From the IMG/VR virus record IMGVR_UViG_2711768074_000024: DNA of 4,207 nucleotides; one strand, 5' to 3'. Positions within the stretch are counted from its first letter, which is position 1. Every line of letters begins with the position of its first letter. The notes below the pieces were generated by a model that had not been told where the DNA came from, did no database searches, and saw only the letters and a program-made list of their open reading frames with translations. Below, one piece after another: positions 949-4,207 of the stretch. Position numbers and translations under genes: made by a program. The stretch comes from a virus (taxonomy: Duplodnaviria; Heunggongvirae; Uroviricota; Caudoviricetes).

Positions 949-1143
949 TCATCCATCATCACTTTGGATTGATGTATATGCTCTCTTTTCTGACGTTAGT
1001 CTCCGACGGCAGGCTTCAATGACCCAGGCTGAGAAATTCCCAGACCCTTTTTGCTCAAGATCGATGTTAATTTGTTCAATCATTTGGTTAGGAAAGCGGA
1101 TGTTGCGGGTTGTTTTTCTGCGGGTTCTGTTCTTCGTTGACAT
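949..1143 (-). CDS. Small ribbon-helix-helix-like DNA-binding protein, YlcI/YnfO (DUF3950)-like, as found next to cos in lambdoid prophages
   Basis: 64-aa ORF MSTKNRTRRKTTRNIRFPNQMIEQINIDLEQKGSGNFSAWVIEACRRRL... has a basic N-terminal tail, then a beta-strand/helix/G-x-S-x-N loop/helix pattern typical of RHH (Arc/MetJ/CopG) folds. The position immediately upstream of cos and antisense to the late genes matches ylcI (DLP12) and ynfO (Qin) in E. coli K-12, as I recall them. ATG is the complement of 1141-1143; stop is the complement of 949-951. Confidence 0.6.
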   Translation of the reverse strand: MSTKNRTRRKTTRNIRFPNQMIEQINIDLEQKGSGNFSAWVIEACRRRLTSEKRAYTSIQSDDG

Positions 1144-1291: not shown

Positions 1292-1306
1292 TGATAATTA
1301 TTATCA
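1292..1306. repeat. Near-perfect 15-bp palindrome TGATAA-TTA-TTATCA just upstream of the cosQ/cosN region
   Basis: Read directly from the sequence: 6-bp arms TGATAA/TTATCA with a 3-bp spacer. Confidence 0.5.
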
Positions 1307-1307
1307 T

Positions 1308-1342
1308 TTTGCGGGTCCTTTCCGGCGATCCGACAGGTTACG
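1308..1342 (+). promoter_or_regulatory. cosQ-containing segment of the cohesive-end site (the right-end side of cosN)
   Basis: TTTGCGGGTCCTTTCCGGCGATCCGACAGGTTACG directly precedes the cosN 12-mer and matches the terminal sequence of the lambda right end as recalled, apart from one or two substitutions. The exact cosQ boundaries are not resolved here. Confidence 0.45.
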
Positions 1343-1354
1343 GGGCGGCGACCT
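1343..1354 (+). other. cosN: cosN: the 12-nt cohesive-end sequence GGGCGGCGACCT, with the top-strand nick predicted between 1342 and 1343 and the bottom-strand nick between 1354 and 1355
   Basis: Exact match to the canonical lambda 5' cohesive end. The downstream flank CGCGGGTTTTCGCTATTTATGAAAATTTTCCGG (1355-1387) matches the start of the lambda genome as recalled. cosN lies 195 nt upstream of the small terminase start, close to the lambda spacing. Confidence 0.85.
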
Positions 1355-1391
1355 CGCGGGTTTTCGCTATTTATGAAAATTTTCCGGGATC

Positions 1392-1401
1392 CATGTCCGG
1401 T
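1392..1401 (-). repeat. R-like repeat, inverted copy (CATGTCCGGT, reverse complement of ACCGGACATG)
   Basis: Direct sequence match. The extended 12-mer AAACCGGACATG is shared with the copy at 1478-1490. Confidence 0.55.
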
Positions 1402-1450
1402 TTCTCTGCAAGTTAACTATATGAAAAATATAAAAACAGGCTGTCCGTGA

Positions 1451-1460
1451 ACCGGACATG
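1451..1460 (+). repeat. R-like repeat, direct copy ACCGGACATG
   Basis: Direct sequence match. Confidence 0.55.
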
Positions 1461-1468
1461 TGCAAAAA

Positions 1469-1477
1469 ACGGACATG
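1469..1477 (+). repeat. R-like repeat, degenerate direct copy ACGGACATG (one C missing)
   Basis: Direct sequence match to the CGGACATG core. Confidence 0.45.
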
Positions 1478-1480
1478 TAA

Positions 1481-1490
1481 ACCGGACATG
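1481..1490 (+). repeat. R-like repeat, direct copy ACCGGACATG, followed by the palindrome ACCGGT
   Basis: Direct sequence match; starts 30 bp after the copy at 1451. Confidence 0.55.
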
Positions 1491-1537
1491 ACCGGTTTTG
1501 TTGTGATTGTGAGGTGAGAGTTTTTGCGAGGTGAGGA

Positions 1538-2047
1538 GTGGCTACGCAGACTGAAGTTGCCAGGCATTTAAGTCTGACCGATCGCCAGCTTCGCAGATTG
1601 CAGAAATTGCCGGGTGCCCCGATATCGAATAAGCGAGGGCAACTGGATCTGGATGCCTGGCGCGATTTTTACATATCGTATCTGAGGAGAAGTAAAAACG
1701 ATGTGCCTGATGGCGATAGCGAAGACGACTATGAGGAGAAATTGCTTATTGCCAGATGGGAACTGACAGCAGAACAGGCTGTTACACAGCAGTTAAAAAA
1801 TGAGGTGTCAAAAGGAAAACTTATTGACACCGGGTTCTGTATTTTTGCCCTCAGTAAGCTGGCAATGGCGTTATCCAGTACGCTTGATTCCATCCCTTTA
1901 TCCATGCAGCGACAGTTTCCTGATTTAACACCGCGCCATCTTGACCATCTGAAAACCCTTATTGCGAAGGGGGCAAATCAGTGTGCGCGGGCAGGGGATA
2001 AATTACCGGATTTACTCGATGAATATATCAGAGCAACAACTGAATAA
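1538..2047 (+). CDS. nu1: Terminase small subunit (lambda Nu1 homolog) with a diverged N-terminal DNA-binding domain
   Basis: The C-terminal two-thirds (…TGFCIFALSKLAMALSSTLDSIPLSMQRQFPDLTPRHLDHLK…LPDLLDEYI…) aligns with the lambda Nu1 C-terminal region as recalled (…TAFCTFVLSRIAGEIASILDGLPLSVQRRFPELENRHVDFLK…). The N-terminal roughly 50 aa is HTH-like but differs from lambda. First gene after cos, overlapping the large-subunit start. GTG start at 1538 with AGGTGA/GAGG just upstream; in-frame stop at 1532-1534 rules out a longer N-terminus. Stop TAA at 2045-2047. Confidence 0.85.
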   Translation: MATQTEVARHLSLTDRQLRRLQKLPGAPISNKRGQLDLDAWRDFYISYLRRSKNDVPDGDSEDDYEEKLLIARWELTAEQAVTQQLKNEVSKGKLIDTGFCIFALSKLAMALSSTLDSIPLSMQRQFPDLTPRHLDHLKTLIAKGANQCARAGDKLPDLLDEYIRATTE

Positions 2048-3947
2048 TATGATGGCTGCCGTTTCGGTTGCGCTGCAGCCTCTGGTCAGGGTTGTACCAA
2101 TGACGGCAGTTGAATGGGCTGATCAAAATTATTATCTGCCTAAAGAATCTTCATATGGTGAGGGAGAATGGAAAACGCTGCCATTCCAGATCGCCATTAT
2201 GAACTGTATGGGTAACGACCAGGTTCGCACGGTTAACCTGATTAAATCTGCCCGTGTTGGCTATACAAAGATGTTGCTGGGGGTGGTCGGGTATTTTATT
2301 GAGCATAAATCCCGAAACAGTCTGCTTTTTCAGCCCACGGATTCTGCCGCTGAAGATTTTATGAAGTCTCACGTGGAGGCGACGATTCGGAACGTGCCAT
2401 GCCTGAAAGACCTTTCCCCATGGCTGGGTCGTAAACATCGTGACAATACTCTCACGCTGAAACGCTTTTCATCGGGCGTCGGTTTCTGGTGCCTGGGCGG
2501 CGCTGCCGCCAAAAACTACCGTGAAAAATCCGTGGACGTGGTCTGCTATGACGAACTTTCCTCGTTCGAGCCGGATGTCGAAAAAGAGGGCTCGCCAACC
2601 CTGCTGGGGGATAAGCGTATTGAGGGGTCGGTGTGGCCAAAATCCATTCGCGGCTCGACGCCTAAAATCAAAGGCACCTGCCAGATCGAAAAAGCCGCTA
2701 ACGAGTCGGCGCATTTTATGCGTTTTTATGTGCCCTGCCCGCACTGTGGGGAGGAGCAGTATCTGAAATTTGGCGATGAGTCCACGCCTTTTGGGCTTAA
2801 ATGGGAGAAGGACAGCCCTGAAAGTGTTTTCTACCTCTGTGAACATCATGGCTGCGTGATCCATCAGTCTGAGCTTGACCAGAGCAACGGGCGGTGGATC
2901 TGTGAAAACACGGGCATGTGGACCCGTGACGGTCTGACGTTTTTCAGCGCCCGGGGTGATGAAATTCCGCCGCCGCGCTCCATCATGTTCCATATCTGGA
3001 CGGCGTACAGTCCGTTCACCACCTGGGTACAGATTGTCTATGACTGGCTGGATGCACTGAAAGATCCCAACGGCCTGAAAACCTTTGTGAACACCACGCT
3101 GGGCGAGACCTGGGAAGAGGCCGTGGGCGAAAAACTCGATCACCAGGTACTGATGGATAAGGTGGTGCGTTACACGGCGGCGGTGCCTGCCCGGGTGGTT
3201 TATCTGACGGCGGGCATTGACTCGCAGCGAAACCGTTTTGAGATGTATGTCTGGGGATGGGCTCCGGGAGAGGAAGCCTTTCTGGTGGATAAAATCATCA
3301 TTATGGGGCGTCCTGATGAGGAAGAGACGCTGTTACGTGTGGATGCGGCGATCAACAAAAAATACCGCCATGCGGATGGCACCGAAATGACTATTTCCCG
3401 TGTCTGCTGGGACACCGGGGGGATCGATGGTGAAATTGTTTATCAGAGATCAAAAAAACACGGTGTTTTCCGGGTGCTGCCGGTAAAAGGCGCATCTGTC
3501 TATGGCAAGCCGGTGATCACCATGCCAAAAACCCGCAATCAGCGGGGCGTGTATCTGTGTGAAGTGGGAACGGATACCGCAAAAGAAATTCTCTATGCCC
3601 GTATGAAAGCCGATCCCACGCCTGCGGATGAAGCCACGTCGTATGCCATCCGTTTTCCTGATGATCCGGAGATTTTTTCGCAGACAGAGGCGCAGCAACT
3701 GGTGGCGGAAGAGCTGGTGGAGAAGTGGGAAAAAGGAAAGATGCGTCTGCTGTGGGATAACAAAAAGCGGCGTAACGAAGCGCTGGACTGCCTGGTGTAT
3801 GCCTACGCGGCATTACGTGTGTCCGTGCAACGCTGGCAGCTTGATCTGGCTGTACTGGCAAAATCCCGGGAAGAAGAGACGACCCGGCCAACCCTGAAAG
3901 AACTGGCAGCGAAGCTGTCCGGAGGAGTGAATGGTTACAGTCGCTGA
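2019..3947 (+). CDS. A: Terminase large subunit (lambda gpA homolog; packaging ATPase and cos endonuclease), 642 aa
   Basis: Collinear with lambda gpA as recalled, from the N-terminus (MNIS…TAVEWADQNYYLPKESSYGEGEWKTLPFQ…) to the C-terminus (…KKRRNEALDC…RWQLDL…). Conserved KSARVGYTK (K76-K84, nt 2244-2270) and CYDELSSF (D178/E179, nt 2550-2555), plus HFMRFYVPCPHCGEEQYLKFGD, VNTTLGETWEE and KGASVYGKP. Start ATG at 2019 chosen by homology (MNIS N-terminus) rather than the ORF-track ATG at 1962; it lies inside the 3' end of nu1. Stop TGA at 3945-3947. Confidence 0.95.
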   Translation: MNISEQQLNNMMAAVSVALQPLVRVVPMTAVEWADQNYYLPKESSYGEGEWKTLPFQIAIMNCMGNDQVRTVNLIKSARVGYTKMLLGVVGYFIEHKSRNSLLFQPTDSAAEDFMKSHVEATIRNVPCLKDLSPWLGRKHRDNTLTLKRFSSGVGFWCLGGAAAKNYREKSVDVVCYDELSSFEPDVEKEGSPTLLGDKRIEGSVWPKSIRGSTPKIKGTCQIEKAANESAHFMRFYVPCPHCGEEQYLKFGDESTPFGLKWEKDSPESVFYLCEHHGCVIHQSELDQSNGRWICENTGMWTRDGLTFFSARGDEIPPPRSIMFHIWTAYSPFTTWVQIVYDWLDALKDPNGLKTFVNTTLGETWEEAVGEKLDHQVLMDKVVRYTAAVPARVVYLTAGIDSQRNRFEMYVWGWAPGEEAFLVDKIIIMGRPDEEETLLRVDAAINKKYRHADGTEMTISRVCWDTGGIDGEIVYQRSKKHGVFRVLPVKGASVYGKPVITMPKTRNQRGVYLCEVGTDTAKEILYARMKADPTPADEATSYAIRFPDDPEIFSQTEAQQLVAEELVEKWEKGKMRLLWDNKKRRNEALDCLVYAYAALRVSVQRWQLDLAVLAKSREEETTRPTLKELAAKLSGGVNGYSR

Positions 3948-4137
3948 ACTGCAGGCGCTGCGTCAGGCGCGCCTTGATTTATTAACCGGTAAACGGGTGG
4001 TGTCTGTCCAGAAAGATGGTCGCAGAATTGAATATACGGCGGCTTCTCTGGATGAGCTTAACCGGGCGATCAATGATGCGGAGTCGGTACTGGGGACAAC
4101 CCGACGTCGCCGTCGTCCGCTGGGAGTGAGGTTATGA
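3931..4137 (+). CDS. W: Head completion / head-tail joining protein gpW homolog (68 aa)
   Basis: MVTVAELQALRQARLDLLTGKRVVSVQKDGRRIEYTAASLDEL…RRRRPLGVRL matches lambda gpW in length and sequence as recalled (…[27 protein letters not shown]…). GGAGGAG at 3921-3927 precedes ATG 3931. Overlaps the end of A by 17 nt. Confidence 0.9.
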   Translation: MVTVAELQALRQARLDLLTGKRVVSVQKDGRRIEYTAASLDELNRAINDAESVLGTTRRRRRPLGVRL

Positions 4138-4207
4138 AACGAACGCCTGTCCTGATTGATGTGAACGGCGTTCCGCTTCGTGAGAGTCTCAGCTACAACG
4201 GGGGCGG
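4134..4207 (+). CDS. B: Portal protein gpB homolog, N-terminal fragment (continues past the window end)
   Basis: ATG at 4134 overlaps the W stop (ATGA). Translation MKRTPVLIDVNGVPLRESLSYNGG resembles the lambda gpB N-terminus (MKTPTIP…SLREYAGYHGGG) as recalled. GAGG at 4127-4130 lies upstream. Expected gene order Nu1-A-W-B. Confidence 0.75.
   Translation, partial: MKRTPVLIDVNGVPLRESLSYNGG

Follow-up and report, generated by a model that had tools for sequence, protein, structure and literature searches.

The cos (cohesive end) sites of lambda-like phages conserve the subsites cosQ, cosN and I2 across the group, while cosB differs (PMC4669245, PMC4856287). I2 is a conserved, essential segment of these sites and is essential in lambda (PMC4856287). 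The literature on lambda-like cos sites describes the specificity classes of lambda, 21 and N15/Monarch, together with the phage-inducible chromosomal islands (PICI), in which cos is redirected by the protein Rpp (PMC4669245, PMC4856287, PMC9026076). Here we describe a cos site in a 4207 nt stretch of viral DNA (IMG/VR record IMGVR_UViG_2711768074_000024), which we call the window and which is the packaging end of a lambdoid (lambda-like E. coli) prophage. We report the sequence anatomy of the site and its conservation, the mosaic boundaries around it and the co-variation of its repeats with the small terminase subunit (TerS) encoded next to it. By analogy with lambda and 21, it is likely that positions 1313-1498 form a functional lambda-type cos, made up of cosQ, cosN, I2 and a complex cosB of an uncharacterised specificity class that would be read by the adjacent TerS.

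Anatomy of the cos site compared with lambda and phage 21

The coordinates of all features are given in the table. Numbers in bp refer to the chromosome, with bp 1 at the first base of the cohesive end (window position 1343). A first-pass annotation of the window, made from the sequence alone, had claimed a lambda-type cohesive end with matching flanks and a sequence unlike lambda cosB from about 1388, and alignment bears out both claims. The cohesive end agrees with that of lambda throughout. The left flank (1298-1342) agrees with the final 45 nt of lambda at 41 of 45 positions, the cosQ heptamer included, and the right flank (1355-1387) is identical to lambda bp 13-45, so that the likeness to lambda takes in cosQ, the cohesive end and I2 through bp 45. 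From 1388 identity to lambda and to 21 falls to about 0.5, and this continues until about 2100. cosQ lies about 30 bp upstream of cosN, as a lambda-type cos requires. Across 69 distinct close variants the cohesive end is almost unchanging (mean difference 0.007). Phage 21, in which cosQ and cosN are identical to those of the window and cosB has another specificity, provides a precedent for this arrangement.

The 8-mer CGGACATG occurs exactly four times in the 4207 bases of the window and all four copies fall within 99 nt (1392-1490). The mean in shuffled sequences is 0.14 copies and none of 200 shuffles reached four. The first-pass annotation placed the repeats correctly: ACCGGACATG is present in exact form at 1451-1460 and 1481-1490 and as its reverse complement at 1392-1401, and 1469-1477 reads ACGGACATG, one C short. 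What had been called a 40-nt AT-rich spacer is approximately right, the measured distance between the inverted copy and the first direct copy being 46 nt (1404-1449) with 65% A+T. The 28-nt core of this spacer has 86% A+T, compared with 50% for the whole window. In the 69 distinct close variants the spacer is variable, the first and last inverted copies scarcely change in their cores and the R3-like copy (1392-1403) shows no change at all.

The positions of these elements follow those of the known complex cosB sites. As in lambda, an R3-like site at about bp 50 is followed by an AT-rich element of the type bound by integration host factor (IHF) and then, 54-57 bp on, by a site in the opposite orientation; terS starts at about bp 190-196. 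In the annotation of phage 21 (OL657228), R3 (AATCGTGTCGGTACTT) lies at bp 50-65, I1 at bp 74-86 (as in lambda), R2 at bp 107-122 in inverted orientation and R1 at bp 150-166 in the orientation of R3. The window and 21 therefore compare as follows: R3, bp 50 in both; IHF-like element, bp 72-84 and bp 74-86; inverted site, about bp 107 and bp 107; and start of terS, bp 196 and bp 189. The lambda-like order R3-I1-R2-R1 that had been proposed for the repeats thus holds by position for R3-I1-R2, against both lambda and 21. It does not hold for the last copies, which are not oriented as R1, save for the one at 1487-1498.

This copy overlaps the last inverted one and was overlooked in the first-pass annotation, which had listed three direct copies. 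It is the only copy that shares both orientation and approximate position with R1 of lambda and 21, and it is a possible R1 equivalent. The three direct copies do exist, but the middle one (1467-1478) is degenerate in most relatives. Its mean difference among the 69 distinct variants is 0.227 and positions 1470-1471 differ in about 78% of them. Relatives mostly have TAGACATG or CAGACATG here, and the copy is degenerate in phage PhiR12_1, so the perfect CGGACATG of the window is a minority state. The middle copy is probably accessory or decaying; it may be decaying in the relatives, or newly perfected in the window. At the third inverted copy (1480-1491), an Enterobacter locus (L030) has a copy at the same distance from terS. 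The segment 1479-1498 is in addition a 20-bp near-palindrome, AAACCGGACATGACCGGTTT, consisting of two head-to-head sites with a common CATG and with their CCGG centres 10 bp apart. By score it is also a terminator-like hairpin, followed by TTTTGTTGTG. The near-palindrome is kept in PhiR12_1 and only partly in L030.

In sequence the sites differ from those of both model phages. The R sequence of the window is CATGTCCGGTTT, compared with CGTTTCCGTTCT in lambda, and where lambda has just one R1 the window has two additional inverted copies and a palindromic layout. The R consensus of 21 is CATGTCGGnCCT. The 5' half of the window motif is superficially similar to it (CATGTC..GG) and only this half is common to the two; the window site has an extra C and starts 3 bp nearer to cosN. 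Neither the R sites and Nu1-type N-terminal domain of lambda nor the CATGTCGGnCCT sites and gp1-type N-terminal domain of 21, which define packaging specificity in those phages, are found in the window. A comparison with known phages had been called for to see whether this cosB was already characterised. When 1380-1540 was compared by blastn with 50,697 phage records, the only matches were five PhiR12 phages (93.8% identity), with no match to lambda, 21, phi80, N15 or Gifsy-1.

Some further observations concern cosQ, cosN and the DNA around them. The heptamer GGGTCCT, mostly followed by T(C/T)CC, is present upstream of terS in very distant viral contigs (L234, L236, L237 and L274-L276) in which cosB and cosN differ, and this agrees with the reported strong conservation of cosQ. 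Cohesive ends at least three positions away from that of lambda, such as GGGCGACGCGCT and GGGCGGCAGCGT, were seen in relatives with the same cosB architecture, namely L022 (E. coli; TerS P0013), L024 and L026 (Salmonella); a close match to the lambda cohesive end was not found in L022. cosN therefore varies within this cosB class. Just upstream of cosQ are two AT-rich palindromes, ATAATTAATTAT (1237-1248) and GATGATAATTATTATCAT (1290-1307), and a promoter-like match (GTGACA, 16 nt, TATCAT) at 1280-1307 overlaps the second. Two small open reading frames over the cos elements, 1291-1416 on the plus strand and 1367-1567 on the minus strand (41 and 66 aa), were put aside as genes because relatives differ by indels in this region, for which the cos elements provide an explanation. 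In the PhiR12 records a short minus-strand frame here is labelled 'hypothetical protein', probably an artefact of annotating a packaging site that does not code for protein.

Association of the sites with the TerS N-terminal domain

The N-terminal part of TerS differs from that of its lambda and 21 counterparts. The Pfam family Phage_Nu1 covers only residues 49-150 and the N-terminal 55 aa have no Pfam match, whereas the first 70 residues of lambda Nu1 and 21 gp1 match Phage_Nu1 positions 1-70. In BLASTP only residues 73-164 align with lambda Nu1 (46% identity) and only residues 64-166 with 21 gp1 (40% identity). The N-terminal domain is thus without detectable sequence similarity to Nu1 and cannot be aligned with that of 21. 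A sequence search of solved structures with this domain gave nothing relevant, and NCBIfam gave nothing. An AlphaFold2 model of TerS (mean predicted local distance difference test score, pLDDT, 73.6; about 80 over the N-terminal domain) has a strand, helix 4-10, helix 15-22, a wing and helix 38-54, an order of elements that in the model is that of a winged helix-turn-helix. The best Foldseek matches of the domain in the PDB were an excisionase, a terminase small-subunit DNA-binding domain, RacA and MerR-family proteins, all with E >= 0.5.

We compared loci taken from genomes, viral contigs and metagenomes around homologues of TerS. The homologues have one common C-terminal part and two types of N-terminus, that of the window (MATQxEVAxHLxLTxRQLRxLQK) and an alternative, LLNKSDMASSIGISVQAFDKW, and loci of both types were included. 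The genome-contig scan gave 15 loci. The first scans of viral contigs and metagenomes, which were ranked by similarity to the first sequence, returned near-identical loci only and were used for micro-variation; two added scans with divergent first sequences supplied the loci for co-variation. The core TCCGGTT was found upstream of terS in 63 of the 79 distinct loci with the window-type domain. These 63 loci come from prophages of E. coli, Klebsiella, Salmonella, Citrobacter and Enterobacter, from Pseudomonas genomes and from uncultured viral contigs with a Pseudomonas-like TerS. This suggests that TCCGGTT, and not CGGACATG, is the conserved core of recognition.

The geometry of the sites is conserved along with the core. 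The distance from the I2 anchor to the core is 22 bp (23 bp in L020) in the 10 complex loci in which the anchor was found, and the forward and inverted cores are 54 bp apart in 11 of the 13 complex (enterobacterial) loci, although the spacer sequences differ. The IHF-type element YAANNNNTTGATW lies at +18 on the same strand, with no mismatch in five loci, one in two more and two in the window. The layout is simple in loci of the Pseudomonas type (L012-L016, L199-L232 and further viral contigs). Here one lone site, or two overlapping sites in direct repeat (TTCCGGTTCCGGTT), precede terS by 20-30 bp, and both the inverted partner and the AT-rich spacer are missing.

Where the domain is exchanged, the sites are exchanged too. 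Where terS encodes the alternative domain (proteins P0056 and P0069; loci L032 and L033), there are GGTGGTTGTTGT sites in R3, inverted and direct order. The same alternative domain is joined to a window-like C-terminal part in P0056, P0060, P0069, P0071 and P0083, suggesting that the N-terminal DNA-binding domain shuffles independently of the remainder of the protein. Additionally, one residue of TerS co-varies with one base of the site. Residue 20, which is inside the predicted helix 15-22, is Arg in 12 of 12 distinct loci with G-TCCGGTT (for example CATG-TCCGGTT) and D, E, K, N, S or T in 51 of 51 distinct loci with T-TCCGGTT, without exception among the 63. For L232, one of the Arg/G loci, the nearest relatives (62-66% identity) carry Asn, Tyr or Ser as residue 20, and T-type sites occur in those of them whose core was detected. 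L232 is nested within Asn-20 relatives and lies apart from the enterobacterial group, so the Arg/G state arose at least twice.

Taken together, the core upstream of most terS genes of the window type, the swap of sites with the swap of domains and the co-variation at residue 20 suggest that the repeats are most likely small-terminase sites. The first-pass annotation had proposed as much from their layout, and the invariance of the R3-like copy is in line with it.

The N15/Monarch class shows that lambda-like cos sites have further specificities; in it R3 of N15 is GAGGTTGTTGTT and one specificity occurs in a simple form in N15 and in a complex form in Monarch (PMC4669245). The class of the window has, in the same way, both simple (Pseudomonas-like) and complex (enterobacterial) architectures. 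The GGTGGTTGTTGT sites of the alternative-domain loci resemble N15 R3 (PMC4669245), and a TerS with the alternative domain and a window-type C-terminus there adjoins GGTTGTTGT sites. The GGTTGTTGT R sites are present at L032 and L033 and absent from the window cosB, which differs from N15 both in recognition sequence and in N-terminal domain. N15 also has a remote accessory site within its gene 1, and the TCCGGTT core is absent inside terS of the window. The PICI cos redirected by Rpp (Fillol-Salom 2019; Murialdo and Feiss 2022, PMC9026076) likewise combines a lambda-type cosN with a non-lambda R3 at about bp 48-65 that is read by another winged-helix protein. In contrast with the PICI, the window site is followed by a complete terS-terL-W-portal operon without rpp, and the predicted recognition domain is in TerS itself.

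Table. Features of the window, with positions numbered from its first base
Feature	Position	Strand	Remarks
Rha/ORF11CD3 regulator/antirepressor-like protein	213-761 (open reading frame 144/213-761)	+	Rha + ORF11CD3
DUF3950 protein	949-1143	-	DUF3950; followed by a non-coding stretch up to terS
cosQ heptamer GGGTCCT, packaging termination subsite	1313-1319	+	Same heptamer, annotated cosQ, at same offset from cohesive end in phage 21 record OL657228
cosN cohesive end GGGCGGCGACCT, bp 1-12	1343-1354	+	12/12 identity with lambda and phage 21
I2 segment between cosN and cosB, bp 18-49	1360-1391	+	Lambda-identical up to 1387
R3-like putative small-terminase site CATGTCCGGTTT, bp 50-61	1392-1403	+	Core TCCGGTT at 1396-1402; position as annotated phage 21 R3, bp 50-65
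I1-like IHF element TAACTATATGAAA within AT-rich spacer, bp 72-84	1414-1426	+	Two mismatches to YAANNNNTTGATW; offset +18 from core
R2-like inverted site, AACCGGACATGT on + strand	1450-1461	-	Exact complement of R3-like site; core almost unchanging in close variants
Middle copy AAACGGACATGT	1467-1478	-	Core one C short; most variable element in region
Third inverted copy AACCGGACATGA	1480-1491	-	Exact CGGACATG; mean difference 0.038 in close variants
Forward copy CATGACCGGTTT, bp 145-156	1487-1498	+	One mismatch; overlaps last inverted copy
terS, small terminase, 169 aa	1538-2047	+	GTG start; predicted N-terminal DNA-binding domain about aa 1-54 (1538-1699); Nu1-type C-terminal part
terL, large terminase, gpA family	2019-3947	+	Pfam GpA_ATPase, GpA_nuclease
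gpW	3931-4137	+	Downstream of terL; followed by start of portal gene

Alternative readings of the repeats

Several observations weigh against the reading of the repeats as sites for TerS in a complex cosB. The likeness of the modelled N-terminal domain to winged-helix or MerR-type domains is weak, with E >= 0.5 and a mean pLDDT of 73.6, and is a hint only. The count of IHF consensus matches in the window is at chance (40 matches, 38 expected) and the window's own IHF-like element, with its two mismatches, is not above chance alone; support for the I1-like element comes from its positional conservation in relatives. The role of the extra copies at 1467-1498 is uncertain, because their orientation is unlike that of lambda R1 and the middle copy is not conserved. 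The co-variation counts ignore kinship and are not phylogenetically independent, only two origins of the Arg/G state having been identified. Finally, the minimum-free-energy fold pairs 1392-1403 with 1450-1461 (z = -3.05 against shuffles).

The last point belongs to a reading at the RNA level, which we regard as improbable. In the late transcript reading through cos, pairing of the R3-like with the R2-like copy would give a long stem, and 1479-1498 would fold into a hairpin with a U-rich stretch after it; these structures would attenuate transcription or regulate the translation of terS. The segment 1479-1498 does score as terminator-like, and the paired changes CATGT/ACATG and CATTT/AAATG across relatives would keep the stem. 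However, such folding is expected of every inverted repeat in DNA. The sequence TCCGGTT itself is invariant, beyond what pairing demands, and many relatives have a single copy or the direct doublet TTCCGGTTCCGGTT, from which no stem is possible; others have further copies in either orientation, for example L202. No Rfam family was matched. The geometry of DNA is suggested instead by an IHF consensus whose offset is fixed and by a spacing of exactly 54 bp, and a structure in RNA leaves the link with residue 20 of TerS unexplained. That link also bears on a reading of the repeats as operators for another DNA-binding protein, either a host factor or a phage regulator such as the Rha-type protein encoded at 213-761. 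A protein of the Rha/ORF11CD3 type is indeed encoded 600 bp upstream, but the upstream genes vary among the loci that keep the sites (lysis genes, KilA-N, autotransporter, peptidase), whereas a terS with the window-type N-terminal domain always adjoins them. The sites are replaced when the domain is replaced, TerS residue 20 co-varies with the site, and the position relative to cosN is fixed, as it is for R3 of lambda and 21. We therefore consider an operator very improbable.

It is also very unlikely that the region is a diverged cosB of the phage 21 type, in which CATGTCCGGTTT would be a variant of CATGTCGGnCCT and packaging specificity would be shared with 21. Both R sequences contain CATGTC and GG, and the large subunit gene has 93% nucleotide identity to that of 21. 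Against this, the window site has the inserted C, its 3' half differs (GGTTT compared with GnCCT) and it lies 3 bp nearer to cosN, and there is no blastn similarity between the two cosB regions. The proteins differ in the same places: the N-terminus of 21 gp1 matches Phage_Nu1 positions 1-70 and that of the window does not, BLASTP aligns residues 64-166 only, and over its first 25 residues TerL has only 24% identity to that of 21. Recognition of TCCGGTT-containing sites by the adjacent TerS is retained as the most likely reading.

The exchanged module, its occurrence and its meaning

The nearest relatives of the window change along its length. Several lambda-like phages match 769-1387 at about 99.5% identity, the only matches to the segment from 1388 to about 2092 are in PhiR12 phages, and 2093-4207 has 93% nucleotide identity to phage 21. 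At the protein level, identity of TerL to 21 gp2 is 24% over aa 1-25, 64% over aa 26-50 and 86-99% beyond. In lambda and 21 the TerS-binding segment of TerL is at its N-terminal end. The mosaic boundaries fall on functional boundaries. From the points at which identity to the lambda-like phages, PhiR12 and phage 21 changes, in nucleotides and in the TerL protein, the exchanged module consists of cosB, terS and the first 25-30 codons of terL (2019 to about 2100). On its reading of the repeats, the first-pass annotation had described the site as a chimeric cos, with a lambda-type nicking site and a different packaging specificity. Such a chimera is the ordinary condition of lambda-like phages.

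This cos type is common. Of 5426 complete E. coli genomes, 1148 (about 21%) contain at least 80% of 1292-1537, a threshold that cannot be reached without the cosB part, and 1292-1537 occurs at 100% identity in many Shiga-toxin-producing E. coli (O103, O45, O121 and O111). The class reaches Klebsiella, Salmonella, Citrobacter, Enterobacter and Pseudomonas-like viral contigs. In the PhiR12 phages TerS is 99.4% identical and cosB 92-94% identical to those of the window. Their records are complete phage genomes and name K-12 MG1655 or E. coli C as the host, so the cos type works in viable phages. A literature search on the PhiR12 phages found no paper. In the literature on cos subsites that we consulted, no description of the recognition sequence of the window was found, and a full-text search on CATGTCCGG and CCGGACATG returned only p53 response-element papers and unrelated primers, with nothing on phage packaging. 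The data suggest that the cosB/TerS pair of the window is a common packaging specificity, of a familiar kind, that differs from those of lambda, 21 and N15.

The lambda-type features of the window extend to its genes: besides the cohesive end, cosQ, I2 with fixed spacing from cosN to R3 and a complex cosB, there is a Nu1-family terS with a gpA-family terL. The small terminase family is catalogued as phrog_57. Just before the GTG start of terS is a direct repeat, TTGTGAGGTGAG (1507-1518) and TTGCGAGGTGAG (1524-1535), the second copy of which is the likely source of the Shine-Dalgarno sequence of terS. Upstream, the Rha/ORF11CD3 and DUF3950 genes sit between the lysis region and cos, and relatives with the same cos have very different genes at that position.

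By analogy with lambda and 21, we propose the following scheme for binding, bending, nicking and packaging specificity. TerS would bind the CATGTCCGGTT elements, with TCCGGTT as their core, through its winged-helix-like N-terminal domain. IHF, or intrinsic bending at the AT-rich element, would fold the DNA and bring the R3-like and R2-like sites, 54 bp apart, face to face. The bound small subunit would place the phage-21-like large subunit on cosN, 50 bp away, for the staggered nicks, and the further copies at 1467-1498 would serve as accessory sites, like R1 of lambda. Lambdoid phages would swap cosB, terS and the N-terminus of TerL together as a single cassette, with cosQ, cosN and I2 left unchanged.

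A more tentative extension of this scheme, which we think doubtful, has two parts. The contact of Arg20 with the G in front of TCCGGTT, as against that of Asp20 or Asn20 with T, may split the enterobacterial phages into two mutually exclusive packaging specificities on one architecture. In addition, the extra inverted copies and the palindrome at 1479-1498 may serve a dimeric DNA-binding domain as a second docking platform that does not depend on IHF. If this were true, the residue-20 contact would be a natural minimal switch of the lambda-versus-21 type that has arisen repeatedly, and the docking platform would be an arrangement not described for lambda, 21 or N15.

In summary, the comparison yields a testable recognition code, consisting of the TCCGGTT core, the putative residue-20 contact and the 54-bp geometry. 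It also gives a search pattern with which cos sites in prophages can be annotated, and exact limits for an exchangeable specificity cassette of cosB, terS and the start of terL. Conceptually this is expected, and it extends a well-understood principle rather than changing it. Packaging specificity sets which DNA can be carried between cells by a lambdoid phage or by a satellite that exploits it.

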